This document shows, piece after piece, positions 155 through 29,593 of a stretch of 32,000 nt of DNA; within the stretch, counting starts at the first letter, position 1; every line of letters starts with the position of its first letter. The DNA comes from Halomicrobium mukohataei DSM 12286 (lineage in GTDB: Archaea > Halobacteriota > Halobacteria > Halobacteriales > Haloarculaceae). The translations under genes and the position numbers were made by a program. The notes beneath the pieces were generated by a model, which saw nothing but the letters and a program-made list of their open reading frames with translations, did no database searches and was not told where the DNA came from. Location of the stretch: the NCBI RefSeq assembly GCF_000023965.1, contig NC_013201.1, forward strand, positions 150,001 through 182,000, given 5' to 3'.

Positions 155-346
155 TTAGCAGCAGTCGCTTCCAGCGCCGCAGACCTCACCGTACTCGAGA
201 CCAATCCCGTCGTTGATCGCTTCGTTACACTCGGTCAGCAGTGACTCGAACTCGTCAGCAGTCACCTCCGACTGTGCCATATCGAGGTCTTCACCGAGCG
301 CTTCAGCGGCGATCAGAACTTCATCGTCGGAGGCGCTCAACAGCAC
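155..346 (-). CDS. Small acidic protein ending in Cys-Cys; homologous to the C-terminal module of the upstream YlbF/YmcA-like ORF
   Basis: 63-codon ORF with a GTG start that overlaps the end of ORF 337-705 by 10 nt. The tail LLTECNEAINDGIGLEYGEVCGAGSDCC aligns with LLEQTNDVISEQIRREFAQSSGGGCC of the upstream ORF. Same strand and operon as arsDA. An internal ATG (MAQSEV...) is an alternative start. Confidence 0.45.
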   Translation of the reverse strand: MLLSASDDEVLIAAEALGEDLDMAQSEVTADEFESLLTECNEAINDGIGLEYGEVCGAGSDCC

Positions 347-705
347 CCACCTCCGGATGACTGCGCGAACTCCCGCCTGATCTGTTCGCTGATCACATCG
401 TTCGTCTGTTCGAGTAGCGCCACGAGTTCCTCTTGCGCTGCCCGATGCTGTTGGATCGTCTCGTTGTTCGAGAGTTCGGTCTGTAGCTCCTGTAATTCGC
501 TCATGACTGACGAGTCGAACTCGTCTCGCTGTAACTCCTGTTGTTTTTCTTGGTACGTTTCGAGCAGAGACTGCGCCTCCTCGTCGGCCTCGAGTTGTTC
601 GCTCGCGTCGACGAACTGCTGATAGGTCTCCGAGTCTCGGAGCGTCTCGATGAACGCCTGCAACGACGCTTCGACGGCTGGTGCCTCCGATACACTTTCG
701 CTCAC
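337..705 (-). CDS. YlbF/YmcA-like (Com_YlbF-type) acidic helical protein with a C-terminal GGGCC
   Basis: 122 aa. The GTG start overlaps the arsA TGA stop (GTGA), implying translational coupling. Glu/Gln-rich heptad-like sequence (QQFVDASEQLEADEEAQSLLETYQEKQQELQ). The Gly-Cys tail recalls the Cys/Gly-rich C terminus of Bacillus YlbF. Confidence 0.6.
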   Translation of the reverse strand: MSESVSEAPAVEASLQAFIETLRDSETYQQFVDASEQLEADEEAQSLLETYQEKQQELQRDEFDSSVMSELQELQTELSNNETIQQHRAAQEELVALLEQTNDVISEQIRREFAQSSGGGCC

Positions 706-2633
706 GACACCGTCACCTCCTGTTCCGTCTCCGTAGTGAGTGCGTCCAGTCCGGTGATCTCTTCACCGAACGCGCGTAGTTCGTCCAGTCCAATCGGCTC
801 GTCCTGACGTAGCGGGGCGAGCATCATCGGCACGTCGAACCGATCGTTGATCTTGCCGAGGTACTCCGCCTGCTGAGCGCGGCGATTCTCGAAGAAGGCG
901 TTGTCACCGTATTCCTCGGGGAGCAGGTAGTTTGTGACCACCAGCGAAGTCTCGATCCCGACTTGATCTTTGAGGTCTGCGGCGGCCCGGTAGGCTTCCA
1001 TCATTGGGGTGTACTCAGGGTACATCACGAACGCGAACGTACTCCGTTCGGGGTCCTTCATCGTCTCGATGACCTCGTCGTACTGGTCGCCTTTCGCGGG
1101 CGCGGCACCCTTTGTCAGCGAACCCAAATCCATGAAGCCCTTCCAGTCGGAGGGGAGTTCGAGCAGTCGGAGCGTGTGTCCCGTGGGAGCGGTGTCAAAG
1201 ACGACGACATCGTAGCCGTCTTCGTCGAAGTAGCTCACGAACTTCTCGAGCGCGGCCATCTCTTCGGCACACGGAGACTCCAGTTCCTCTTCGACGTTCG
1301 CAATCGCCGCGTCCACGTCAATCTGTGTGTCCTCCTTGTCTTCGTACATCTCGGTGACGTGGTCGAGGACCTGCGTGCGGTACTCTTCGAGCGCTTTCTC
1401 CTGGTCAATCCGTGCCGCGTCGAGGTTTGCTTGACCGACCGATGTCGGCTCGTGGCCGACCGGTTCGCCGAAGATATCCTCAAGATGGGCGGCCGGGTCA
1501 GTTGTGACGACGAGCGTTTCGTGGCCAGCTTCGGCGAGTTTCGTCGCCGCCGTCGAGGCAATCGTACTCTTGCCGACGCCGCCCTTCCCAGTGAAGAAAA
1601 GATACCGCGTCTCATCGCCCGGTTGGAGCTGGTCGGCGACCGCCTCGGAGTCAGCCATCGACTCGAAGTCGACCGCAGTCTCTGCGTCTACATCGGTCGC
1701 CGTCCCAACGTCGACGGTCGCCTCGTCGCCGTCGTACAGTACGCCACCGACATCTGCGAGTAGATCGAGCCCTGCGATTTCGCCCGGCTGGAGTGGGTAC
1801 GTCGCCATCGCGTCGGCGTCGAACTCCGTCCGTGCGCGCTCGATAACTGCCTGCTCGTCTGCGCGTTTCCCCTGGAAGAACGGATCCTCACACACCGGCT
1901 CGGGGAGATAGCCGTTGATGATCAGCAGTTGGGACTCGATCCCAAGCTCGCCGAGGTCTCTTGCACTGCGCTCGATTTCGTCGATTGAGGAGTCCTCGGG
2001 CTTGCCGACGAACGCGAAGGACGTACGCTCGCCGTCTTGGAGCGTGTCGATGGCACGCTCGTAGTCCTGTTTGCGCTCTTCCATCGAGGCTGCCGGCCCA
2101 ATACAGGTCGAGCCGCCTTTCTCCAGTTCAGCGTTCCAGTCGGAGGGCAGCTCCATCAACCGGATCGTGTGACCGGTCGGCGCCGTGTCGAAGACGACCA
2201 CATCGTACTCGGGGCAGTCCATGAAGTCTACGAAGTTGTCGAAGGCGGCGATCTCTTCGACACACGGGCTGTTGAGTTGCTCCTCGACGGTTTCGAGTTG
2301 CTCGTCGTCGAGCAATTGCTGCATCGGTTCAATCGTCTCCTGTCGATACTCCTCGGCCGCCGTGTCTGGGTCGATCTCGATGGCCGAGAGGTTCTCGATG
2401 TCGTCGATAGCAGTGACATCGTGACCGATCTCCTGGCCGAAGATATCCGAGAGGTTCGGTGCAGGATCGGTCGTCACCAGCAGCGTCTCGTAGTCGTTGT
2501 CCGCGAGCCAAGTCGCCGTCGCGCAGCTCACAGTACTCTTACCGACACCGCCTTTGCCGCTGAAAAAGACGAATTCGGTCTCCTTGCTGGTCGGCTCTAC
2601 GACCGCTCGTACGTCGGGGGGCGTCGTGCTCAT
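702..2633 (-). CDS. arsA: Arsenite-stimulated ATPase ArsA (two-domain)
   Basis: 643 aa with two homologous halves. Each half has a deviant Walker A (GKGGVGKST at residues about 27 and about 350), a DTAPTGHT signature in both halves, and TTDPA motifs. It lies immediately downstream of arsD. Confidence 0.95.
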   Translation of the reverse strand: MSTTPPDVRAVVEPTSKETEFVFFSGKGGVGKSTVSCATATWLADNDYETLLVTTDPAPNLSDIFGQEIGHDVTAIDDIENLSAIEIDPDTAAEEYRQETIEPMQQLLDDEQLETVEEQLNSPCVEEIAAFDNFVDFMDCPEYDVVVFDTAPTGHTIRLMELPSDWNAELEKGGSTCIGPAASMEERKQDYERAIDTLQDGERTSFAFVGKPEDSSIDEIERSARDLGELGIESQLLIINGYLPEPVCEDPFFQGKRADEQAVIERARTEFDADAMATYPLQPGEIAGLDLLADVGGVLYDGDEATVDVGTATDVDAETAVDFESMADSEAVADQLQPGDETRYLFFTGKGGVGKSTIASTAATKLAEAGHETLVVTTDPAAHLEDIFGEPVGHEPTSVGQANLDAARIDQEKALEEYRTQVLDHVTEMYEDKEDTQIDVDAAIANVEEELESPCAEEMAALEKFVSYFDEDGYDVVVFDTAPTGHTLRLLELPSDWKGFMDLGSLTKGAAPAKGDQYDEVIETMKDPERSTFAFVMYPEYTPMMEAYRAAADLKDQVGIETSLVVTNYLLPEEYGDNAFFENRRAQQAEYLGKINDRFDVPMMLAPLRQDEPIGLDELRAFGEEITGLDALTTETEQEVTVS

Positions 2634-2636
2634 GCG

Positions 2637-2966
2637 TTAGGCCTCCTGGGTCGGAGTGGCTGTTTCGAGTGCTGCCGCGAGTTCGTCGTACGAGAGGTAC
2701 TCGGACTTGCCGACAATTTCGTCGTCAACGACAGTGATCGGCAAAATCGATGGACCGTGTTCCTCGACGAGGTCGGAGATAGACTCGGTCTCGAGGAACT
2801 GATCGATATTGTGCTGCATGTTCGCCCGAGAGATATCGACATCTTCGAATTCCGCTTCGAGCTGATCGAGTGCGGCGCTGACCTCGACGAGTTCGTCGTC
2901 GGGGTCAGGTCCACAAACGCCGGTGGAACAACACATCGCTTCTTCGTACAGGGAAAGTTCAGTCAT
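2637..2966 (-). CDS. arsD: Arsenic metallochaperone / weak repressor ArsD
   Basis: 109 aa. The N-terminal MCCSTGVCGP carries the Cys12-Cys13-Cys18 As(III)-binding triad typical of ArsD. The stop is 3 nt upstream of the arsA start. Confidence 0.9.
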   Translation of the reverse strand: MTELSLYEEAMCCSTGVCGPDPDDELVEVSAALDQLEAEFEDVDISRANMQHNIDQFLETESISDLVEEHGPSILPITVVDDEIVGKSEYLSYDELAAALETATPTQEA

Positions 2967-3285
2967 TGAGCTGAAAGGTGTGTTTTCTCAATTGTCTGGC
3001 CATCAGTCCGGCGGTCACCGATCATATCGCAGCTGTTGTTCCATCGCATTCAATTGAGTACTTGTTCAATCATGCTCATAAGATCTTCGGCTCGCACAGA
3101 CGTAGTCAATACTCTAATCGTGCTAAAGGCACTGAACAGATGGTTCTTCTCGTCGAGTCGTTTGCCTCTGTCGGTAGATCTCCAGTATATCTCACGGAGT
3201 GCTAAAGCAACAAGACTGGAATCGAGTGTCCCAGTGCATAAGCCACTCCAGAATACTTAATTCGTTATCTGCTTAATCGATTTGT

Positions 3286-3678
3286 ATGTCATCAACCGAG
3301 CGGCTACAACGGTACCTTGCCGACGAGCGAGGTGGGTGTGGCGACGAAGAGGTATGCCAGCGTCTATCGGAACTCGAAGAGATAGACGCGGCCGCAGGTG
3401 GGCCTGCACTGGACGAAGACGTTGAATTGCTATCCGCGCTTGCGAACGAGACTCGGTACAAGATTGTTCGTATCCTCCATATCGCTGGCGAAGAGCTCTG
3501 CGTCTGTGAATTTGCGCCGCTGCTCGACGTCAGTGACAGCGCAATTAGCCATGCACTGTCCCAACTCACCGACGCTGGACTCATCACTCGCCGAAAAGAG
3601 GGGAAGTGGCGGAAATATCGAGCGACAGCACGAGCCAACGCCGTTCTCATCGCTCTGGATGGATCGCGGGAGCTATGA
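3286..3678 (+). CDS. arsR: ArsR/SmtB-family metalloregulator
   Basis: 130 aa. It has the ELCVCEF metal-binding motif followed by a winged HTH (SDSAISHALSQLTDAGLITRRKEGKWRKY). Divergent from arsDA across a lower-GC, roughly 320-nt intergenic region. Confidence 0.85.
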   Translation: MSSTERLQRYLADERGGCGDEEVCQRLSELEEIDAAAGGPALDEDVELLSALANETRYKIVRILHIAGEELCVCEFAPLLDVSDSAISHALSQLTDAGLITRRKEGKWRKYRATARANAVLIALDGSREL

Positions 3679-3865: not shown

Positions 3866-4150
3866 ATGGTACAGCATTATTGGCGAAGTTTGGATTTGTG
3901 TGTACAGAATGTGGGGCGAAGCCAGATGTCAGCTGCGTTCGCAGAGCGGGAACGTGATCTACGAAAATCGGGGGATGAGTTCGAGATTCTCTCCGGCGGT
4001 ACACACCCCGCTGAACGCGTCCACGAGGAAGTAATCACAGTCATGCAAGAACGTGGTATCGACCTCTCTGACCGAACGCCTTGAGAGGTCTCGAATAACG
4101 AACTCGAATCGTGCGACGTCGTCGGCCTCGCCAAGTGCCCAGTAGTTGCT
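3866..4150 (+). pseudogene. arsC: LMW-PTP-type arsenate reductase ArsC, disrupted (in-frame TGA at 4082-4084, C-terminal half missing)
   Basis: CVQNVGRSQMSAAFAE is the CX5R(S/T) phosphatase loop. Reading through the TGA gives EVSNNELESCDVVGLAKCP, which still aligns with ArsC (..ADLVVTLCGDA..CP). No frame afterwards resembles the ArsC C terminus. Confidence 0.6.
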
Positions 4151-4362
4151 TCGTGGCGAACGAGCCCGCGATCTTCGAGTCGCGAGAGGACAGCACTGAT
4201 GCTCCCGGCGTTCACGTCTGTCGTGATCGCCCTTACACCTTCGCGGCAGACCACATCGACCGTTCGGCCCCGTTCTCGGGCGACAGCCGCGACGCAATCG
4301 ACCGGTTCCTCAACGAGCACGAACGGGAACTGCGCGAGCGGTACGAGACCTGATTGAGTCAT
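4135..4362 (-). other. Possible 5' fragment of a winged-helix regulator gene, abutting the arsC stub (coding strand ambiguous)
   Basis: The minus frame reads ...ITTDVNAGSISAVLSRLEDRGLVRHE, which is HTH-like. It then degenerates where it overlaps the arsC stub. The opposite frame 4111-4353 (+) also has GC3-rich codons, so the coding strand cannot be settled by eye. Confidence 0.25.
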
Positions 4363-4941: not shown

Positions 4942-5303
4942 CTAGTCGAGGCCACCCCCGCTCTGGTATTCGGTCACCTGCGTCTCGAAATTCTCTTCCG
5001 CGTTCAGGTTGACTTGCTCGGACATCCACGGGAACGGATTGTCAGTCCCGTACTGCTCCGGTAAGTCGAGTTGTCCAAGGCGCCGGTCGGCGATGTGTTC
5101 GACGTACTCGGCGAACTGCTCGGCACTCATGCCAAGTATTTCGTCAGGATACGCCTCATAGGTGTAATTTTCTCTATCTCGACCGCTTCAGTAATCTGGT
5201 CGGCTACCTCGTCGCCGAACTCGTCGGTCCACACGCCGGGATTCTCCGACCAAATCTGTCTGATGAGATCCACTCCGAAGCCGTCAACGACCGAGGTACG
5301 CAT
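4942..5303 (-). pseudogene. Remnant (C-terminal third) of a second class I RNR beta subunit, frameshifted
   Basis: My minus-strand translation gives ..VDGFGVDLIRQIWSENPGVWTDEFGDEVADQITEAVEIEKI. After a 1-nt frame change near 5165-5175 it continues YTYEAYPDEILGMSAEQFAEYVEHIADRRLGQLDLPEQYGTDNPFPWMSEQVNLNAEENFETQVTEYQ. This is collinear with residues about 205-330 of the intact nrdB at 7063-8079. All iron-ligand regions upstream are missing. Confidence 0.7.
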
Positions 5304-5365
5304 ACGCCGAGGGGTAGGGTGGCGTAGTTTACATGGACCACTCTATCATACCGGCCGATGGGATA

Positions 5366-7060
5366 TCAGCTCTCACAGGCCTTGCATTCGAGGATGTCTC
5401 GGCTGAACTTCTGTGCGGCGTTCACGCTATGTTGGTAGTAGAGACTCTTCACCCCTTTCTTCCAGGCCTCGATGTAGAGCTGGTTGATCTCCTTGACGCT
5501 CACTTCGCTCGGATCGATCGAGACGTTCAGGCTCTGTGCCTGATCGATGTGTTTCTGCCGCTGCGCCGCCTGGTTGATGATCGCCATCTGTGGGATCTCG
5601 GCGAAGGTCTTGAACACCTCCTTCTCCTCGTCGGTCAGGCAGTCGAGGTGTTGCACGCTCCCGTCGTTCTGTGCGATGCTGTCCCAGACCTCGCGCTCGT
5701 CTCTGCCTCGCTCTTTCAGTATCGCCTCAAGGAACCGGTTCTTCTGCGTCGACTTCAGCTTCGCACCGTCGCGGACGAAGTAGTTCGATTTCAGCGGTTC
5801 GATGCTCGGACTGACCTGCCCCAGGATGACACTGCTGGATTTCGTCGGGGCCACGCTCATCGTCGTCGCGTTCCGGCGACCGTAGCCCTCGAGTACCTCC
5901 GGCTCGCCGAACTCGTCGGCGAGCCGACGACTCTCCTCGTAACTTCGCTCCTTGATCGTGCGGAAGATTGCCTCGTTTTTCTCCATCGCCTCCATGCTGT
6001 CGAACGGAATCATCTCGCTCTGGAGGTAGCTGTGCCAGCCGAGGACGCCGATGCCGACCGCCCTGTGCCGTTTCGCAAACCGTACTGGGCGTTCCATGAA
6101 CTGCGTCCCCTCCGCCTCTTGGATGAACTCCTCTATGACGGCGTCGAGGAACCGCGTCAGCGTCTCTACTGCGTCGGTGTCCTTCCACTCGTCGTAGTGG
6201 AGCGCGTTCATCGACGAGAGACAACAGACGAAACTCTCGTCTGGCGTGGCCGGCAGCGCGATCTCGGTACACAGGTTAGAGCCGTTGATCTCGTAGCCCC
6301 TGTCCTTGTAGACCTGTGGCTTCCCGTCGTTCATGTTGTCCCGGAAGATAATATACGGGACACCGATGTTGATCCGCGTCTCTATGATCTCTGCCCACGT
6401 CTCTCGCTTCTCTTCGTCGCCGTCGACCATCGCCCGGAACCAATCGTCACCGATGATGACGCCGTAGTAGATGTCCTGTACGGGGTCGCCCTCGGTCTTG
6501 ATGTTGAGCCACTCGTCCAGGTCGTCGTGTTCGACGTCGATGTACCCCGCGAACTGGCCGCGCCGCGTCTCGCCCTGGCTGACGACGTTGATGATCGTGT
6601 CGAACAGTTCGGTGAAGCTGTAGCTCCCATTGCTCTTGCCGTTGTTCGTGATCGGGCTACCTCGGGGCCGGATCTCGCCGAAGTACCCGCTGGTCCCGCC
6701 GCCCAGCTTGGTCATCTCGCCCACTTCGGCCTGCGTGTAGAGGATGCTCTCCATGTTGTCCTCCATGTAGCTACCGAAGCAGCTGATGGGCAGGCCCCGG
6801 TCCAGACCGAAGTTCGACCACACCGGACTCGCGAGGCTGTAGAAGCCCCGACTCATGTAGTCGTAGAACTTGTCCGCGAAGCCGTCGTCGTCCAGGATCT
6901 CCTCGGCTCGCTCCGCGATCTCCCTGACCCGCTCCTCGGCCGTGACGCCCTCGATCAGGTACCCCTCGTCGAGGAACGCCCGGCTGTCCTCGTTCAGCCA
7001 GTAGAACGGTTCCTCGTGCTGCTGGTTGACCTCGTCGAGTGCTGGTTCTGTTTGTACCAT
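5366..7060 (-). CDS. nrdA: Ribonucleoside-diphosphate reductase alpha subunit, short form without an N-terminal ATP-cone
   Basis: Motifs found: SNLCTEI active-site loop, PISCFGSY, VAPTKSSS, and a C-terminal CKAC redox pair. I place the start at MVQTEPALDE (ATG 7058-7060), 2 nt after the nrdB stop. The track's 7171 start would overlap nrdB. Confidence 0.9.
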   Translation of the reverse strand: MVQTEPALDEVNQQHEEPFYWLNEDSRAFLDEGYLIEGVTAEERVREIAERAEEILDDDGFADKFYDYMSRGFYSLASPVWSNFGLDRGLPISCFGSYMEDNMESILYTQAEVGEMTKLGGGTSGYFGEIRPRGSPITNNGKSNGSYSFTELFDTIINVVSQGETRRGQFAGYIDVEHDDLDEWLNIKTEGDPVQDIYYGVIIGDDWFRAMVDGDEEKRETWAEIIETRINIGVPYIIFRDNMNDGKPQVYKDRGYEINGSNLCTEIALPATPDESFVCCLSSMNALHYDEWKDTDAVETLTRFLDAVIEEFIQEAEGTQFMERPVRFAKRHRAVGIGVLGWHSYLQSEMIPFDSMEAMEKNEAIFRTIKERSYEESRRLADEFGEPEVLEGYGRRNATTMSVAPTKSSSVILGQVSPSIEPLKSNYFVRDGAKLKSTQKNRFLEAILKERGRDEREVWDSIAQNDGSVQHLDCLTDEEKEVFKTFAEIPQMAIINQAAQRQKHIDQAQSLNVSIDPSEVSVKEINQLYIEAWKKGVKSLYYQHSVNAAQKFSRDILECKACES

Positions 7061-7062
7061 CG

Positions 7063-8079
7063 TTAGAACATGTCCTCCGCGGTGACGCTCTGTGCGTGTT
7101 TGTTGTACGTGGTCGACCGCTTGCTGAAGAAGTCGTTGTCCTTCGTCATCATGATGTCCTCGTCGAACCACCGCGTCTCCTCGAGCAGGTCCTCGTCCGG
7201 CTCGAAGATCGGCTCGACACCGACGTTCTCGAGGCTCTGGTTGAAACGGTCCCGCAGGAACGCGTCGACGTGCGCCCGGGGAAGGAACTCCAGTTCGCCC
7301 TCACCGAAGATCCAGTCCAGTATCTTCATCTCTGCCTCGAACGCCTGCTGACAGGCCGCTTGGACCTCTTCTTCGAAGTCCTCGTCGAAGAGGTCCGGAT
7401 TCTCCTCGCGAATCGTCTCCACGAGTTCGACACCGAACAGTCCGTGAATCTGCTCCTCCTTGCTGGTCGCTTCGACGGCGTTCGCGATCCCCTTGAACTT
7501 CTTCTCGTGTTTGTCGAAGCTCGTCATGATGAGGAACTGCGAGAACAGCGAGACGTGCTCGACGAACGTGGAGAACAGCAGGAGACTCATCACGTACTCC
7601 TGTGTGTCGTCGCTCTCGCTCTTCTCGAGGTACTCGTCGAGGTAGTCGATCCGCTCCTCGATTGCGGGGACATCGGTCACCTCCTCGAAGTCCTCCGTGA
7701 TCCCCAAGATGTCGAGGAGATGGCTGTACGCGTCCATGTGTCTGACCTCGCTCTCGGCGAAGGTCATGCCGACGTTCCCGACCTCCGCTTTGGGCATCTC
7801 GTCGTAGATGTCTGCCCAAAAGGTCTTGACCTGGACCTCAATCTGCGCGATGGCCAGCATCGTCCGCTTGATGACGGCCTTTTCTGCCGGAGTCGTGTTG
7901 ACCTTGAAGTCCTGCACGTCTCCCGAGAAGTTGAACTCCGTGTGAACCCAGTAGCTGTTCCGTATCGCGTCTTTGTACTCGAGGACGTCAGGGTACTCGT
8001 ACGGTTTGAGCTGTGTCCGTTCGGAGAAGATGTCGGTCTCCGTATCTCCGCCTGTGGTTTTGTTTTCAGTCATTGGCAC
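7063..8079 (-). CDS. nrdB: Ribonucleoside-diphosphate reductase beta subunit (di-iron/tyrosyl radical type)
   Basis: 338 aa. ESEVRHMDAY supplies E-x2-H-x3-Y (the radical Tyr). FVEHVSLFSQF and EEQIHGLF (E-x2-H) supply the remaining metal ligands. Confidence 0.9.
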   Translation of the reverse strand: MPMTENKTTGGDTETDIFSERTQLKPYEYPDVLEYKDAIRNSYWVHTEFNFSGDVQDFKVNTTPAEKAVIKRTMLAIAQIEVQVKTFWADIYDEMPKAEVGNVGMTFAESEVRHMDAYSHLLDILGITEDFEEVTDVPAIEERIDYLDEYLEKSESDDTQEYVMSLLLFSTFVEHVSLFSQFLIMTSFDKHEKKFKGIANAVEATSKEEQIHGLFGVELVETIREENPDLFDEDFEEEVQAACQQAFEAEMKILDWIFGEGELEFLPRAHVDAFLRDRFNQSLENVGVEPIFEPDEDLLEETRWFDEDIMMTKDNDFFSKRSTTYNKHAQSVTAEDMF

Positions 8080-8242
8080 GTACTCCGGAGGAGTCGCCCT
8101 CTGTTGGTTGGCTTCTGTTGCCGTCGTTCATTCGTTCGGTGCGTTCGAAGGCACCCGTGTCGCTTTCTGTACGCCTGGACGTGGGCCATGCTCGCCCGGT
8201 CAGGAATTGACCGAACATTCGTTTGATCTGCGTATATTTGTG

Positions 8243-8731
8243 TCATTGTGAACTGTTCGAGGCTTCGAAGTCATCGAGTTCCGCATCCAAGACTGCATCA
8301 AGTTCTCTCAGGAATTCCTGCGGCTCAGAGAATGCTTTGTAAACGGAGACAAATCGAATGTAGGCTACCTTATCGAGCGTGCGGAGGCTTTCAGAGACGA
8401 GTTCGCCGATGAGACTCGAAGAGACGATACGTGCCTCTCGACCTTGCAGTTCGCTCTCGACATCGTCGACGAGAGCAGTCACTGTTGTCTCGGTCACATC
8501 TCGCTTCTCAACGGCTCGCTCGATCCCTGCGCGGAGTTTCTGTCGGTCGAACGATTCGATGGTTCCGTCGCGTTTTTTCACTTGGAGGGACTCCCACTCC
8601 GGACGTTCGTAGGTGGTAAAGCGGAACGAACAGCGTTGACACTCGCGACGCCGTCGGACGGAGGTTCCGTCGGCACTGGTTTCTGTATCGATGACGCGTG
8701 TTCGCTCGTTCCCGCAGTCCGGGCAGTTCAT
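8243..8731 (-). CDS. nrdR: NrdR transcriptional repressor (zinc ribbon plus ATP-cone)
   Basis: MNCPDCGNERTRVIDT...CQRCSFRFTTYE is the CxxC...CxxC ribbon. VKKRDGTIESFDRQKLRAGIERA is the ATP-cone. ATG at 8729-8731 is preferred over the track's GTG at 8740 because NrdR proteins start M-x-CP-x-C. Confidence 0.9.
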   Translation of the reverse strand: MNCPDCGNERTRVIDTETSADGTSVRRRRECQRCSFRFTTYERPEWESLQVKKRDGTIESFDRQKLRAGIERAVEKRDVTETTVTALVDDVESELQGREARIVSSSLIGELVSESLRTLDKVAYIRFVSVYKAFSEPQEFLRELDAVLDAELDDFEASNSSQ

Positions 8732-23746: not shown

Positions 23747-25495
23747 TCAGACGGGCACCGGCGGAGCAGCCGGATTGAACGCCCCGTCTGCCAGCATCGA
23801 GTAAATCGGGAAGCCGTATGCGATAGCCACGAGGACGACGGCCACGACGACCCACAGCTTCATGTTGTCCAGCACGCGCGGACTGTCCGAGACCCCAGAG
23901 ATCGGTTCGGGGAGGTGGCTGTCGACACGGAGCCGTCCGCGGCCACGCTCTGCGAGCCAGGTGCCAACCATCACGGTGACGAACAGCAGGGCACCGATCG
24001 TCAACAGCAGAGCGCCGGCCGCGATCTGCAGCCGCATCTCCGGGACCGATCCGAAGACCGCCTCGAAGGAGAACTGCTGGTACTGCGGCTCGGCGGTCCG
24101 GCGCGGGACGCCGGCCAGTCCCGCCCGATGCATCGCGTTGGACATCAGGGCCATCCCGATGAACCAGACGTAGGGCTGGATCTGTGCGAGACCGTAGAAC
24201 TGGAGGCGCTTGCCCGTGACCTGTGGGTACAGCCAGTAGCTGATCGCCATCATCGTCAGCGCGCTGGCCGTCCCGACGGTGAGATGGAAGTGGCCCGGCA
24301 CCCACAGCGTGTTGTGGATCAGCGAGTTGATGTTCATGCCCGCGTTGACGATCCCGGAGAACCCGCCCGCGGCGAACATCAGGCCGGCGAGCGCACACCC
24401 GGCGAAGGCCGGATTCGACCACGGCAGGGCGGTCATCCAGCGAAGGTAGCCCTTCCCGCCGCGCTGTCGAGCGCCGTACTCGATGCTCGCGACGGCGGTA
24501 AACGCGGTGAGGAAGCTCGGGAGCAACAGGAACATCGTGTTGGTCATCGCGACGAACTTGAACCCTTCCGCGATCCCGGGGTCCGCGTACTGGTGGTGGA
24601 ATCCGACGGGCGTCGAGAGGATCAAGAAGAGGACGAACACGACGCGCGCGAGCGGGTCGCTGAACAGCCGGCCGCCGGCGAGCTTGGGCAGGATCGTGTA
24701 CCACGCGAAGTACGCCGGCATGAGCCAGAAGTAGACGACCGGGTGGCCGAAGTACCAGAACAGCGTCCGAGTCAACAGCGGATCGACGCTGTCGATCAGC
24801 CCCAGCGAGAGCGGCAGGAGGAACACGAGCACCTCGACGGCGACCCCGATGGTAGCGATGTACCACATCAGCGTCGTCGTCAACACCATGAACGTCTGGA
24901 GTGGGATCCGCTCACCGCCGTTGTCACGCCGCCAGTGGACGTACAGGCGGATCCAGTCGGCTCCCGCGAGCCACGTGCCGACGAGCCACGCCGCCAGTCC
25001 AGCGTAGAACAGCGGATGGGCCTGCAGGGGCGCATAGAAGGTGTAGAGCACGTCTGCCTCGAACGGGATCTCGCCGACGAAGCCGCCGAAAATAGCCAGG
25101 GCGACCGCAGTGGCACCAACGAGCTGGAGCCCGAACCAGAACAGCGAGAAGCGCCGCGAGAGGAGGTCGCGGTCGAGACTCCGGGCGACGCCCCAGGAGA
25201 AGACCCCAGAGAGGAAGAAGATCGTAAAGAACAGCGCGAGCAAGACGCCGTGACCGGTCAGCACCGTGTAGTAGTCGACCGAGCTGATCACGCCCCGAAA
25301 GACGTTCGTTCGGTGCAGCGCCTGGACGATCCCGAGCACCGCACCGATCAACAGGGCGGTAAACGAGACGCCAAAGCACAGTCGCGTCACGCGTGCCGCG
25401 GTGGGATACTGGTCGACGAAGGCAACTCGATTGCCGGCAGTCAGCTCGGATTGTGCTCGGCTCTCGCTGGTCGGGTCGTCGTGTGCATGTGCCAT
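23747..25495 (-). CDS. cbaA: ba3-type (B-family) heme-copper oxidase subunit I
   Basis: FGHPVVYFWLMPAYFAWYTILPKLAGG, GFHHQYADPGI and GHFHLTVG match Thermus-type ba3 subunit I rather than A-family WAHHMF. It has about 13 TM segments. Confidence 0.9.
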   Translation of the reverse strand: MAHAHDDPTSESRAQSELTAGNRVAFVDQYPTAARVTRLCFGVSFTALLIGAVLGIVQALHRTNVFRGVISSVDYYTVLTGHGVLLALFFTIFFLSGVFSWGVARSLDRDLLSRRFSLFWFGLQLVGATAVALAIFGGFVGEIPFEADVLYTFYAPLQAHPLFYAGLAAWLVGTWLAGADWIRLYVHWRRDNGGERIPLQTFMVLTTTLMWYIATIGVAVEVLVFLLPLSLGLIDSVDPLLTRTLFWYFGHPVVYFWLMPAYFAWYTILPKLAGGRLFSDPLARVVFVLFLILSTPVGFHHQYADPGIAEGFKFVAMTNTMFLLLPSFLTAFTAVASIEYGARQRGGKGYLRWMTALPWSNPAFAGCALAGLMFAAGGFSGIVNAGMNINSLIHNTLWVPGHFHLTVGTASALTMMAISYWLYPQVTGKRLQFYGLAQIQPYVWFIGMALMSNAMHRAGLAGVPRRTAEPQYQQFSFEAVFGSVPEMRLQIAAGALLLTIGALLFVTVMVGTWLAERGRGRLRVDSHLPEPISGVSDSPRVLDNMKLWVVVAVVLVAIAYGFPIYSMLADGAFNPAAPPVPV

Positions 25496-25497
25496 CG

Positions 25498-26016
25498 TTA
25501 CTGCACCTCACTCGTCTCGTTGAACTCCGACGGTGGGACCACCTGCAGTGATCCCTCCATCGTGTGGTGGCCGCTGCCACAGTACTCGTTACAGACGATG
25601 CCGTACTCCGCGGGCTCGTCGAACTCGGCCGTGACCATCGCCTTCTGTCCCGGAACAGTCATCGTATTGATATTCGTGCCGACGATCTCGAACCCGTGGA
25701 GGACGTCACGGCTGGTCACGTGGAACGTCACGGTACTGTTGGCTGGCACGCGGATTGGCTCGTTCGTTCCGGGGACGAACAGGAACCGCTGCGTTTCGAC
25801 GTAGACGTCGTAGTGGCCGTCTTCGCTCCCGTTGTAGACACCGGGTTCGCGGACGTTCTCGCTCGCGGTGGGGTCGGTCCCGTCGACCTGTCCACCCTCC
25901 GCGTCGACCATCCCGTAGCCAGCACCGACGGCCCCGTAGGTCACCGTCGCGACGAACAGAGCGATCAACAGCAGCGATCCCACCAGCCAGATGCGTTCAA
26001 ATCTGTGGACGTGCAT
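25498..26016 (-). CDS. cbaB: ba3-type oxidase subunit II (CuA)
   Basis: 172 aa from MHVHRFERIW, with a single N-terminal TM and a cupredoxin domain. CuA ligands are H..(HGFEIVG) and CNEYCGSGHHTM. The stop is 2 nt before the subunit I ATG. The track's longer 5' extension is Arg-rich and implausible. Confidence 0.9.
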   Translation of the reverse strand: MHVHRFERIWLVGSLLLIALFVATVTYGAVGAGYGMVDAEGGQVDGTDPTASENVREPGVYNGSEDGHYDVYVETQRFLFVPGTNEPIRVPANSTVTFHVTSRDVLHGFEIVGTNINTMTVPGQKAMVTAEFDEPAEYGIVCNEYCGSGHHTMEGSLQVVPPSEFNETSEVQ

Positions 26017-26018
26017 AG

Positions 26019-26396
26019 TCACCCGATCACCGTTGGTCCGTTGTCGAGGAACTCGACGAAGTACATGAACAGCCAGGTCAGGGAGACGACGGCGAAGTAA
26101 AGAGCCAGCAACGTCGCCGTCCCGACGGGGTCGAACGCGTCGTGGTCGACCGACTCCGTCTCGGATTCGGCCACCGACGACTCGTACATCACCCCGGCTG
26201 CTCGCTGTGTGTCCGTTCGCTCGTCGCCGTGCGACTCGAACGACGTGTCGGGCTGATCGTGCCACCCGAACCGATAGCTGAGTAGTAGAATACCAGCGGT
26301 GACTCCGAGGCCGATCGCGGTCGTCAGAAGTAACATGCGACTCCCGCCGGAACCACCACCCGACGCTGTGGCCAGTGCTATTTGGAGACCCCTCAT
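26019..26396 (-). CDS. Small two-TM protein upstream of cbaB (possible small oxidase subunit)
   Basis: TM helices are LLLTTAIGLGVTAGILLLSY and TATLLALYFAVVSLTWLFMYFV. The stop abuts the cbaB start. The start is uncertain (26396 or 26336). Confidence 0.5.
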   Translation of the reverse strand: MRGLQIALATASGGGSGGSRMLLLTTAIGLGVTAGILLLSYRFGWHDQPDTSFESHGDERTDTQRAAGVMYESSVAESETESVDHDAFDPVGTATLLALYFAVVSLTWLFMYFVEFLDNGPTVIG

Positions 26397-26477
26397 ACTC
26401 GGTTGGCTTCGAGCGAACTGACATGTACTCTGGGTTGTCACAGGACAACTTCGGGAGGACGGCACCGTGGTCGACGG

Positions 26478-28817
26478 TTACGACCCCGCCTCGCTACCGA
26501 CCGGACGGGTCGAGTTGAGCACGACGAGCAGGCTACTGGTCGCCATCGCCACGGCGGCAAACAGGGGGTTCAGGACACCGACGACGGCGAGTGGCAGCGC
26601 GATCCCGTTGTACAGGAACGCCCAGCCGAGGTTCTCGCGGATCCGTCGGCGGGTCCCTTCCGTCGTGGCGAACACCTCTGGCAGCGCGGCGAGAGAGTCG
26701 TCGGTGACGACCACGTCCGCCGCGTCGAACGCGAGCCGTGTGCCACTCTCGACGGTGATCCCGAGGTCAGCTGCCCCCAGTGCCGGCGCGTCGTTGCTCC
26801 CGTCGCCGACCATCGCCACGGTGCCGTCGACCCCCAGCCGATCGACGACCGCGGCCTTGGCCTCGGGCGGGACACCGGCGAAGACTTCGTCGACCGAGCG
26901 GTGGGACGCGAACTGTTCGGCTGCCGCCCGGTCGTCGCCCGTGATCACGACGACGCGGCGGTCGGCCGCGAGGCGATCGAGCACCGATTGCCACCCCTCG
27001 CGCACCTCGTCACCGACGACGACGGCACCGCGAACGCGCCCGTCCCAGCCGACGTAGCTCGCGATCGCGTCGTCACCGGCACCGTCGTAGGTGGCGGCCA
27101 CGCCGCTGGGGACGGTCCAGTCCCGCGCCGCGAACAGCGACTCGTCGCCGACCAGCACGGTCCTGTCGCCGACTGTCGCCTGCACGCCCCGTCCGGGGAT
27201 CGTCTCGAAGGCCGTGACGGGCTCGTCGGGCGGTGTCCCCGCCTCGGAGATCGCCTCCGCGACGGGGTGGGTCGCGAACTGTTCGACGGCGCTGGCGTAC
27301 GCGAGGCTCTCGTCGTGGCCCACGACCGTCCGAACGGTCATCGATCCAGTGGTGAGGGTGCCCGTCTTGTCGAGCGCGACAGTCTCGACCGCCGGTGCCG
27401 TCTCCAGGGCTGTGTCGTCGGTGATCACGATGCCCGCGTCGAGAGCGTCTCGAATCCCAGCGGCGACGGCCATCGGCGTCGCCAGACCCAGTGCACAGGG
27501 ACAGGAGACGACGAGGACGGTCAGGCCGGTCAACAGTGCCGCGGTCGCTCCAGTGCCCGCGAGCAGGTGGACGACCAGCGTCCCGACAGCCAGGACGAAC
27601 ACGAGCGGGACGAACACCGCCGCGATCCTGTCGACGAGGCGCTGTGCGCCGGGTGTCGCGCTCTGTACCTCCCACAGCGTCTCTGCGAGTCGGTCCACAG
27701 TGCTCGTCGGGTCCTCGTCAGCGCGGACGACGACCCCACCGTCCGTGACCGTCGTCCCGCCGAGAACCGCGTCCCCGGTGGCTTTCGAGACGGGCAGCGA
27801 CTCGCCGGTGACCAGTGACTCGTCGACCGCGGCCGTGCCTTCGACGACCGTCCCGTCGACGGGGACCGGTTCGCCACCTTTGACTACCAGTTCGTCACCG
27901 CCGTCGACTGCCGACCGAGAAACCGACTCGATGCCGTCGGCCGTCCGGCGGCGTGCCGCGTCCGCTCGTTCGTCGGAGACCGTTGCGAGGCGGCCCATGG
28001 CCCGTCTGCGGACACGCTCCTGATAGTAGTCGCCGACGGTCACCGCGAGGACGACGACGACCGCCACGTCGAAGTACAGATCCGTCTGACCGAGCGCCAT
28101 CGCGATCGTGCTGTAGACGTAGGCCGTCGCCGCCGCGATCGCCACGAGCAAGTCCATGTTCGGGTGGCCGACCCGCAGGCTCACGACCGCACCACGGAAC
28201 AGCGGATAGCCGGTGTAGGCCACCACGACCGTCGCCATGACCCAGACGTTCGCGAACAGGAACCCACCCGCGGGACCGTCCAGGTCGACGAGCAGCGACG
28301 ACGGCGCGACGCCCGTGTACACGGGATAGAGAAAGAGGACGTACCAGGCCATCACCATCATCCCGAAGAAGCCACCGACCATGAGACGACCGACGGTCTC
28401 TTGGGCGTCGTCGGCCGACGCCGCGCCCTCCTGGGTCGCGTCGTAGCCGTGCCCCGAGATGCGGTCCGCGATCGCGTCGGGTTCGGCCGTCGCCGGATCG
28501 AAGACGACACGGACCATCCCAGCGGTGTAGCTGGCCTCGGCGGCCCGAACGCCCGGAGCGTCGGTCGCGGTGGCTTCGAGGAAGGTCTCGCAGGTGGCAC
28601 AGTGCATTCCGTCGACGTCGAAGTAGGCCCGATCGCCATCGACGGAGTCCACGTCTGGCCCGGTGTCGACGGCCGTCTGGGGATCGGCGTCGGCGGGCGC
28701 GTCGTCGAGCGTGCGGGCGACCGTCAGGCACCCCTGACAGCAGAAGGCACCGTCCACGTCCGGAGCGGTGTGGGGCGGATCGGGTGTCGGCAGGCCACAG
28801 AGAGTACACTCGCCCAT
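26478..28817 (-). CDS. Copper-type P1B heavy-metal ATPase with N-terminal TRASH-like Cys motif and HMA domain
   Basis: Motifs found: DKTGTLT, CPC (VVSCPCALGLATP), MVGDGSNDAPAL and TGES. The HMA domain reads GMHCATC. The N terminus MGECTLCGLP-x-FCCQGC is C-x2-C-x18-C-x3-C. I place the start at ATG 28815-28817, 2 nt after the upstream stop. Confidence 0.9.
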   Translation of the reverse strand: MGECTLCGLPTPDPPHTAPDVDGAFCCQGCLTVARTLDDAPADADPQTAVDTGPDVDSVDGDRAYFDVDGMHCATCETFLEATATDAPGVRAAEASYTAGMVRVVFDPATAEPDAIADRISGHGYDATQEGAASADDAQETVGRLMVGGFFGMMVMAWYVLFLYPVYTGVAPSSLLVDLDGPAGGFLFANVWVMATVVVAYTGYPLFRGAVVSLRVGHPNMDLLVAIAAATAYVYSTIAMALGQTDLYFDVAVVVVLAVTVGDYYQERVRRRAMGRLATVSDERADAARRRTADGIESVSRSAVDGGDELVVKGGEPVPVDGTVVEGTAAVDESLVTGESLPVSKATGDAVLGGTTVTDGGVVVRADEDPTSTVDRLAETLWEVQSATPGAQRLVDRIAAVFVPLVFVLAVGTLVVHLLAGTGATAALLTGLTVLVVSCPCALGLATPMAVAAGIRDALDAGIVITDDTALETAPAVETVALDKTGTLTTGSMTVRTVVGHDESLAYASAVEQFATHPVAEAISEAGTPPDEPVTAFETIPGRGVQATVGDRTVLVGDESLFAARDWTVPSGVAATYDGAGDDAIASYVGWDGRVRGAVVVGDEVREGWQSVLDRLAADRRVVVITGDDRAAAEQFASHRSVDEVFAGVPPEAKAAVVDRLGVDGTVAMVGDGSNDAPALGAADLGITVESGTRLAFDAADVVVTDDSLAALPEVFATTEGTRRRIRENLGWAFLYNGIALPLAVVGVLNPLFAAVAMATSSLLVVLNSTRPVGSEAGS

Positions 28818-28819
28818 AG

Positions 28820-29593
28820 TTATCCCAGTGGTTGGTAGATCGGAATGCTCGAATGCGGGAGGTGGATGCCCAGTAACATCGCACCGTGTGCCAGCGGGAG
28901 GTAGCCAAGCAGCAAGAACGTGACGCCGAGGACGCGGTGGAGCGGTCCCTGAAATCGCGGCGAGATCGACTGGAACGCGACGCCGTAGGCAAAGACGGTC
29001 GGCACCGTCGCCAGCCCCAGCACGGCGAGCGCGACGCCGCCACGGACCGGCGATCCCGTCGCGAAGGCGTACAGAAACGCGGGGTACAGCAACGGGCACG
29101 GGAGGACCCCGTGGGCCGCGCCGAGCGCGACGATCTGGGGGCCACGAACCCACCGCTCGATTCGGTCGAGCAACGCAGTACTCACCCGTTCGAAGACCGC
29201 CGGTGTCGGGGCGTGACCGAACAGTCCCCCAGTTCCCGTCAACAAGTAGTTCGCGCCGACGAGGAGGATGACACCGCCGATCACCAGACCGGCGACCGCG
29301 CGAACGTCGTTCGCGACGGCCGCGACCGCCGCAGCGTCGTACAGCAGCGCACCCAGCCCGCCGAACAGCACCCCGAGAACGGTGTAGCTCGCGGTCCGAC
29401 CCAGATTAAACAGCAGGTGCTGGCGGATCGTCCGCCAGGTCGCCGGACCGTCTGTCCCCATCTGATCGGCGTAGACAGTCACCAGCGGTCCGCACATGCC
29501 CAGACAGTGCACACCACCAAGCAGCCCGACGAGCGCGAAGACGACCAGCTCGACCTGCCCAGAGAGGGCACCAGACACCTGCGGGACAGACAT
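28820..29593 (-). CDS. DsbD_2 / TauE-like membrane protein with an HC-x2-MCGP motif
   Basis: 257 aa, about 6-7 TM. GGVHCLGMCGPL lies near the N terminus and HGVLPCPLLYP lies later. This family is often linked to Cu-ATPases and oxidase biogenesis. Confidence 0.7.
   Translation of the reverse strand: MSVPQVSGALSGQVELVVFALVGLLGGVHCLGMCGPLVTVYADQMGTDGPATWRTIRQHLLFNLGRTASYTVLGVLFGGLGALLYDAAAVAAVANDVRAVAGLVIGGVILLVGANYLLTGTGGLFGHAPTPAVFERVSTALLDRIERWVRGPQIVALGAAHGVLPCPLLYPAFLYAFATGSPVRGGVALAVLGLATVPTVFAYGVAFQSISPRFQGPLHRVLGVTFLLLGYLPLAHGAMLLGIHLPHSSIPIYQPLG

Follow-up and report, generated by a model that had tools for sequence, protein, structure and literature searches.

We analysed a 32,000 nucleotide stretch of a Halomicrobium mukohataei plasmid (positions 150,001 to 182,000 of contig NC_013201.1; hereafter the window) in which two small open reading frames (ORFs), hcsL and hcsS, lie directly downstream of arsD and arsA and encode proteins that both end in a vicinal Cys-Cys pair. 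Comparison with other loci suggests that these two proteins are a cysteine-tailed pair of the RicA/RicF type that has been recruited to ars operons. The four genes are closely packed on the minus strand between window positions 155 and 2966, and the RefSeq plasmid record NZ_CP039376.1 of strain JP60, in which the window corresponds to bases 175420-207419, already names both ORFs (hcsL and hcsS, "halo-CC-star proteins"). The longer of the two, hcsL (337..705, minus strand), encodes 122 amino acids ending in SSGGGCC, with the codons of Cys121-Cys122 at 345..340, and hcsS (155..346, minus strand) encodes 63 amino acids ending in GAGSDCC, with cysteines at positions 40, 56, 62 and 63. A first-pass annotation made from the letters alone had placed both ORFs downstream of arsD-arsA, with these coordinates and ends and with a GTGA overlap between hcsL and arsA, all of which was confirmed in the sequence.

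HcsL is a YlbF/RicF-fold helical protein. It matches Pfam family PF06133 (Com_YlbF) over profile positions 4-104 of 105 (65.2 bits against a cutoff of 23.9, E-value 8.6e-18) and the NCBIfam model NF041416 at 165.1 bits (cutoff 140). An AlphaFold model of HcsL made with 80 homologues is all-helical, with a predicted local distance difference test score (pLDDT) of 85 overall and below 50 for residues 120-122. When this model was searched with Foldseek, the best match was RicF (6prk_A, template modelling (TM) score 0.75/0.79), and the top 12 PDB matches were all members of the same family (6prk, 6prh, 2iaz, 2pih, 2oeq and 2oee; TM 0.57-0.75), comprising RicF, RicA, YmcA, SP1372, a DUF964 protein and YheA. 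A profile search of PDB sequences also returned family members, with 2pih at 4.6e-6 and RicF (6prk) at 1e-5. The first-pass assignment of the longer ORF to the YlbF/YmcA type is therefore well founded, both by profile and by fold.

HcsS matches NCBIfam model NF041415 at 88.3 bits (cutoff 55). On its own it gave no match to Pfam-A in a local copy that does not include PF26263, and PF26263 (DUF8067) is precomputed on HcsS homologues. The AlphaFold 2 model of HcsS (pLDDT 81) is a two-helix hairpin (residues 7-27 and 30-48) with a low-confidence tail, and a Foldseek search with it gave no meaningful match, as expected of a 63 amino acid helical hairpin. HHalign aligned HcsS residues 7-63 to HcsL residues 64-122 (probability 85%, E-value 6e-6), which makes HcsS a paralogue of HcsL that corresponds to its C-terminal half; the NF041416 and NF041415 models cross-match at about 1e-3. 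Homology between the two C-termini, originally claimed for roughly the last 30 residues, is thus real and extends further. No membrane segment is predicted in either protein, and both are soluble and helical in the models.

Both ORFs are genuine genes. Homologues with conserved tails were found for HcsL (182) and HcsS (195), and relative to same-length homologues the substitutions fall mostly at third codon positions (335/228/717 by codon position in hcsL and 69/76/179 in hcsS); conservation, codon-position bias and matches to curated families together rule out shadow ORFs of GC-rich DNA. The acidic composition to which the first-pass annotation drew attention is present in both proteins and is not distinctive, being the normal bias of a haloarchaeal proteome; it was discarded as a functional clue, as the bias is proteome-wide in haloarchaea and relatives among non-halophiles are not acidic. 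The same annotation did not know the two as described ars genes, which holds for function and literature and not for nomenclature: the window genes are ordinary members of curated, named families (NCBIfam NF041416 and NF041415, RefSeq, Pfam DUF8067), and the names HcsL, HcsS and DUF8067 carry no function. Searches of the available literature found no paper mentioning halo-CC-star, DUF8067 or NF041416/NF041415 and none connecting YlbF or DUF964 with arsA or arsenic, and among the papers listed HcsL and HcsS turned up only as unrelated acronyms.

The cysteine tails of the pair are conserved. All 120 listed HcsL homologues end in CC, within an almost invariant GGGCC. Of the 122 HcsS homologues, 96 have the CC terminus and another 24 a single terminal C. 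Two further HcsS cysteines had not been remarked upon in the first-pass annotation, namely an upstream cysteine 4-6 residues from the C-terminus, present in nearly all of the 122 (C56 in the window), and a cysteine in the last helix, present in 107 of them (C40 in the window). The usual thiol count is therefore two on HcsL (GGGCC) and three in the HcsS tail (C-x4-6-CC). The HcsS of Halobacterium NRC-1 (plasmid pNRC100; contig L050, 7360-7548) is without the upstream cysteine (YTDASDAGSDCC), and tail variants among the homologues comprise CC, CCG, SC and GC. A GGCC tail persists in relatives whose two genes do not overlap, which argues that the tail is constrained at the protein level as well as by the nucleotide sequence at the gene junction.

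The gene junctions themselves are conserved. The GTG start codon of hcsL (705-703) shares its TG with the arsA stop codon TGA (704-702), giving GTGA at 705..702, and a Shine-Dalgarno (SD)-like GGAGGTGA lies at 713..720 on the minus strand, inside the 3' end of arsA and 7 nt before the GTG. This NTGA overlap of hcsL start and arsA stop (ATGA or GTGA) is found in 34 related loci (35 rows with the window), and an SD-like motif precedes hcsL in 34 of 49 rows, mostly GGAGGTGA at -15. At the second junction the hcsS ORF overlaps the 3' end of hcsL by 10 nt. Here GGA GGT GGG TGC TGT TGA (337..354, minus strand) contains an SD-like GGAGGTG (354..348), the annotated GTG start of hcsS (346..344) and a TTG (340..338) that lies 7 nt past the SD-like motif and overlaps the hcsL stop codon as TTGA. 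Across genera (in the window and in 45 haloarchaeal loci with a match to the pattern) the hcsL 3' end GGAGGTGGGTGCTGTTGAGC is nearly invariant at the nucleotide level, the same stretch doubling as the SD-like GGAGGTG and the annotated GTG or ATG start of hcsS. The last cysteine codon of hcsL is TGT in every pattern-matching locus, where TGC would be synonymous in both frames, and in three loci the annotated hcsS start position reads CTG; because of these two features we suspect that hcsS starts at the TTG, two codons past the annotated start, which would give a protein of 61 amino acids. Judged from these overlaps, an arsD-arsA-hcsL-hcsS operon ends with these two cistrons, and their translation is predicted to be coupled with that of ArsA.

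The first-pass annotation had proposed a survey of co-occurrence with arsA in other archaea, and the outcome of such a survey was positive. In 47 haloarchaeal loci, taken from one genome per species and covering many genera and both chromosomes and plasmids, hcsL directly follows arsA in all 47 and hcsS comes next in 46, the hcsL copy in the exceptional locus being truncated near a contig end. Wherever the contig extends that far, arsD precedes arsA, and in nearly all loci with a long enough contig there is an arsR in divergent orientation immediately ahead of arsD. Conversely, none of the 24 plasmid records that contain a haloarchaeal-type ArsA lacks hcsL. When all ORFs within 10 kb of the 47 loci were clustered, the only other conserved neighbour was arsC of the low-molecular-weight-phosphatase type (about 29 loci); no RicT-like (YaaT) or other non-ars family was conserved within this distance, and no genome-wide search for RicT was made. 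ACR3 adjoins in 8 of the 47 loci and arsM in about 12, and the ACR3 genes rule out the idea that haloarchaeal ars clusters never come with a transporter. On pNRC100 the gene order is arsD-arsA-hcsL-hcsS-arsR2-arsM; a review writes this Halobacterium NRC-1 cluster as arsMR2ADR1C, in which the hcsL and hcsS ORFs do not appear (PMC1447603).

Two haloarchaeal plasmids carry related genes away from arsA. In Haloferax alexandrinus plasmid pBNX82-1 (L067, 3151-8191), hcsL-hcsS occurs without any arsA, downstream of a helix-turn-helix regulator and a cation-translocating P-type ATPase and before a transposase. Either rearrangement has left a remnant here, or the pair has a second context that is tied to a metal ATPase. 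A Natrinema gelatinilyticum plasmid (L068, 4767-5321) has a divergent YlbF-like ORF ending in GGCCED, in which the CC is not terminal; no ars gene is nearby, and the neighbours resemble, by eye only, molybdenum-cofactor genes of the MoeA/MobA type.

The association is not confined to haloarchaea. Against 1.84 billion representative proteins, a profile search returned 659 relatives, and among the best 150 of these, 105 have CC within the last four residues; most are non-acidic. Genomic context outside haloarchaea was taken from 12 contig look-ups, a small sample and not a census, of which nine were informative. In six of the nine, representing five distinct groups of relatives, the pair directly follows arsA or arsD-arsA. 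GC-rich contigs encoding non-acidic proteins have the order arsR-arsD-arsA-YlbF(CC)-DUF8067-DUF166-ACR3-arsC, and two groups of low-GC contigs have arsD-arsA followed by the long and short genes. A third arrangement (L069, 5628-9077, and also L070 and L071) runs arsR-arsR-arsM-arsD-arsC-arsA, two small ORFs and two full-length YlbF paralogues, and on another contig arsD-arsA is followed by a single 265 amino acid protein consisting of two fused YlbF domains, which argues that the two halves act together as one unit. The pair thus occurs in three architectures: long plus short, two full-length paralogues, and one fused protein. Other contigs place the long and short genes beside a regulator, either after ArsR (L051, L061 and L062, none from halophiles, with an HMA-domain P1B ATPase next in L051) or before it, as in a low-GC archaeon. 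On three contigs too short to reach the upstream genes, a YlbF-like protein lies beside a second YlbF paralogue or DUF8067.

All of the sampled ars-linked relatives score higher on the HcsL model than on Firmicute YlbF/YmcA models. In the sampled non-halophile operons, the first or only YlbF-like protein scores 84-103 bits on the HcsL model and the second YlbF paralogue of L069 scores 54 bits, against a cutoff of 140, and a non-halophile HcsS relative scores 43 bits against the NF041415 cutoff of 55. Non-halophile relatives are left unnamed by NCBI because they score below the NF041416 cutoff. Synteny with arsD-arsA is retained down to about 30% identity, on both high- and low-GC contigs; some of the distant loci are archaeal by their neighbours (ribosomal S17e, DUF7343, MtrA-like), and the type represented by L069-L074 is presumed bacterial. 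A metagenome scan for non-halophile relatives gave 3 loci only, and a tblastn search of a plasmid collection with distant relatives returned haloarchaeal hcsL alone and no annotated bacterial example. The association of cysteine-tailed YlbF pairs with arsD-arsA outside haloarchaea is new, having been missed by the curated models.

Two further observations were made on these contigs. In a metagenome-assembled genome of Candidatus Iainarchaeum (L048, 5947-6606), an hcsL-like gene is broken by an in-frame TAG and a frameshift before a stop that follows ...GCCG, and an hcsS-like region ending in CCG comes next; there is no arsA on this 10-kb contig, and the broken gene could be a pseudogene or an assembly error. 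Contig L066 (95-1813) carries a second, divergent two-domain ArsA paralogue of 572 amino acids, with 36% identity to the window ArsA, just upstream of an operon in which the pair follows arsD-arsA.

The model that we favour, at a probability of roughly 45%, is that HcsL and HcsS form a heterodimer whose thiol tails bind trivalent arsenic (As(III)) or antimony (Sb(III)) and exchange it with ArsD and ArsA. HcsL, as a helical bundle of the RicF/RicA type, would pair with its half-size paralogue in the manner of RicA and RicF, and the resulting heterodimer would display short, flexible, glycine-rich C-terminal tails bearing thiols. These thiols would bind As(III) or Sb(III) in the cytosol, and the metalloid would be exchanged with the Cys12/13/18 site of ArsD, the Cys124/177/455 site of ArsA, or both. 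In this way the pair may chaperone or buffer metalloid alongside ArsD, or may act as co-ligand in loading or activating the ArsA ATPase; such co-ligation with ArsA would parallel the RicA and RicF tails, which co-ligate their cluster with RicT. We favour this model because the soft-metal contexts in which the genes occur (ArsR, P1B ATPases) fit it, and because the ArsD of R773 offers a precedent for a vicinal cysteine pair.

ArsD binds As(III) through three thiols, those of Cys12, Cys13 and Cys18. The window arsD (2637..2966, minus strand) encodes a metallochaperone that matches PF06953 and NF033727 and has Cys12-Cys13-Cys18, and the C-x4-6-CC of HcsS mirrors this CC-x4-C site. HcsL and HcsS further resemble ArsD in being small soluble proteins encoded beside arsA, with a vicinal cysteine pair and, in HcsS, a third cysteine; however, the fold is unrelated, and neither matches PF06953. 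ArsD of R773 also has vicinal pairs near its C-terminus (Cys112-113 and Cys119-120), which have been implicated in metalloid sensing (PMC4562236). No such C-terminal pair is present in the window ArsD or in the ArsDs encoded beside YlbF pairs, which have only the N-terminal CC-x4-C. ArsD is encoded in every arsA-linked locus whose contig extends far enough; the pair therefore adds to ArsD and does not replace it. The window arsA (702..2633, minus strand) encodes a two-domain As(III)-stimulated ATPase (PF02374; NF041417 at 1191 bits). Alignment to structure 9nbl (1f48 being the next match) showed that it keeps the three metalloid-site cysteines C124, C177 and C455, equivalent to C113, C172 and C422 of R773 ArsA, and these columns are also conserved in the ArsA of other operons with a YlbF pair. 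The possibility that the tails replace a metalloid cysteine lost from ArsA was ruled out, as all three are conserved. Nickel chaperones such as UreE, HypB, SlyD and CooJ likewise combine a structured core with a disordered, ligand-rich tail and are encoded beside the machinery that they serve, although their folds, ligands and metals differ from those of HcsL and HcsS and the likeness is one of analogy only.

The comparison with the Bacillus subtilis proteins RicA and RicF (PF06133) is closer. They share the helical fold, act together as two paralogues and carry flexible C-terminal cysteines; they heterodimerise, their C-terminal cysteines ligate a [4Fe-4S] cluster jointly with RicT, and their tails are needed to hold RicT in the complex (PMC6751060). 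The first-pass annotation had described this iron-sulfur (Fe-S) precedent correctly. In contrast to RicA and RicF, the HcsS partner is half-size, and the HcsL and HcsS tails are very short with vicinal CC, whereas those of RicA and RicF extend over 20-25 residues with spaced cysteines. The settings differ as well: hcsL and hcsS belong to ars operons of archaea and uncultured organisms, and ricA and ricF to developmental and RNA-processing loci of Firmicutes, with the RicT partner gene not among the conserved haloarchaeal neighbours.

Several observations weigh against the metalloid-exchange model. The RicAF C-termini exit the dimer on opposite faces (PMC6751060), and the very short HcsL tail may not meet the tail of HcsS if the pair is built in the same way. 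A fixed three-thiol site on HcsS alone is not universal among the homologues, since a single terminal cysteine is found in about 20% of HcsS proteins and the NRC-1 protein is without the upstream one. Part of the invariance of GGGCC in haloarchaea could come from the overlapping SD-like motif and start codon of hcsS. The other two observations come from gene context and point to Fe-S chemistry. A member of the same clade, P0188 (L077, from NCBI assembly GCA_007121375.1, and L078, at 5001-5378 on both; tail GGCGGGCC), lies directly after genes for Rrf2, a cysteine desulfurase and NifU_N, an isc operon of the iscR-iscS-iscU type, which suggests such chemistry for some of the clade at least. In addition, the extended ars operon of L069-L071 continues with a PF02441 flavoprotein, an FmdB zinc ribbon with a Cys-rich tail (SGCGPLCGPGSC), PF04060 (FeS) and PF01883 (FeS_assembly_P), and includes CooT in L071.

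The strongest alternative is that HcsL and HcsS are an Fe-S pair like RicAF, in which the C-terminal cysteines ligate a [2Fe-2S] or [4Fe-4S] cluster, possibly together with ArsA or ArsD. The pair would then be an arsenite-resistant Fe-S carrier or repair factor, or a redox or arsenite sensor, a role that makes sense in an arsenite setting because As(III) attacks Fe-S assembly. This is a serious rival because one clade member sits in an isc operon; the nearest solved relatives of HcsL are themselves cluster ligands, and the ars1 operon of Bacillus CDB3 (arsRYCDATorf7orf8) has a HesB-like gene downstream of arsA (PMC4562236). However, the dominant contexts, with arsD-arsA, ArsR and P1B ATPases, are those of soft metal or metalloid efflux, the 47 haloarchaeal loci share neither a RicT-like gene nor any other conserved neighbour from outside the ars set, and the tails are much shorter than those of RicA and RicF. 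The authors of the Ric study also know of no documented case in which adjacent cysteines ligate the same cluster, with one possible exception (PMC6751060). On balance we regard an Fe-S role as unlikely, while keeping it well within consideration.

A further alternative, which we consider distinctly improbable, is that the pair is an adaptor or regulator of ArsA and not a carrier, with the cysteine tails as an As(III)-triggered switch that would tune the ATPase, stabilise its A1-A2 closed state, or dock ArsA onto ACR3 or a haloarchaeal pump. Overlapping start and stop codons that couple production to ArsA would suit such a role, as would the requirement of the RicA and RicF tails for holding RicT. 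Also in its favour, ACR3 is adjacent in only eight of the 47 haloarchaeal loci, and for Halobacterium NRC-1 reviews report that the arsB homologue on the chromosome plays no part and that a new pump has been postulated (PMC3600143, PMC1447603). Against an adaptor role, the pair is also found without ArsA, beside ArsR and P-type ATPases, and the models predict that each protein is soluble, helical and devoid of membrane segments.

It is very improbable that hcsL and hcsS are conserved passengers unrelated to arsenic or metals, acting for example in RNA processing or regulation as proposed for Bacillus YlbF and YmcA. The Pfam and JGI names ("cell fate regulator YlbF") come from Bacillus phenotypes, no arsenic phenotype has been reported for these ORFs, and the review of the NRC-1 ars cluster is silent on both (PMC1447603). 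This is countered by synteny with arsD-arsA that persists to about 30% identity on high- and low-GC contigs, some of them clearly archaeal, and through three architectures, by the conserved coupling to arsA, and by the lack of any conserved RicT-like or other non-ars gene beside the pair. To our knowledge, haloarchaea also lack RNase Y. Covalent modification of the terminal Cys-Cys (lipidation, for example), which would leave the proteins membrane-tethered or processed and the thiols unavailable as free metal ligands, has the least to recommend it: the motif does lie at the very C-terminus after a flexible glycine run and is almost invariant, and one distant locus has a radical SAM/SPASM gene at its edge, but a conserved gene for a modifying enzyme is lacking around all 47 haloarchaeal loci, tails as varied as these fit metal ligation more readily than they fit a strict recognition motif, and we know of no established pathway of this kind in haloarchaea.

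The remainder of the window supplies the surroundings of the operon. Divergent from arsD lies arsR (3286..3678, plus strand; PF01022), encoding a regulator of the ArsR/SmtB type, and the spacer between the two genes (2967-3285) is presumed to be a divergent promoter region. Further on is an apparently truncated arsC of the low-molecular-weight phosphatase type (3866..4138, plus strand), which aligns only over residues 15-95 of a full-length, 151 amino acid haloarchaeal ArsC and has an ORF stop at 4084; near it, the gene table of the plasmid lists just a "hypothetical protein" at 4153-4353. Elsewhere in the window (5366-8731 and 23747-29593) are genes for a class I ribonucleotide reductase (alpha and beta) with NrdR, a photolyase, a ba3-type cytochrome oxidase, and a second P-type ATPase adjoining a TauE/SafE exporter.

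In the textbook account, metalloids are chaperoned by hand-off from ArsD to ArsA, a step regarded as involving two proteins. Among the haloarchaea sampled, the genetic model Halobacterium NRC-1 included, two coupled genes for cysteine proteins come after every arsA of this type, and the database names hcsL, hcsS and DUF8067 conceal an uncharacterised, broadly conserved module whose non-halophile members are missed by the present NCBIfam cutoffs. We put forward tentatively, with the odds somewhat against it, the wider proposal that ArsD-ArsA systems in archaea, and probably those in bacteria too, widely include a third component that has gone unrecognised: a cysteine-tailed YlbF pair, which would co-ligate As(III) or an arsenic-sensitive metal centre with ArsA or ArsD. 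In Halobacterium the pair could be the missing piece of ArsB-independent, ArsA-dependent arsenite resistance. If it is an Fe-S carrier instead, arsenic resistance would be linked to the protection of Fe-S metabolism. If the pair does bind arsenite or modulate ArsA, the model of ATP-driven arsenite efflux would gain a new component, and the ArsB-independent function of ArsA in haloarchaea would become testable.

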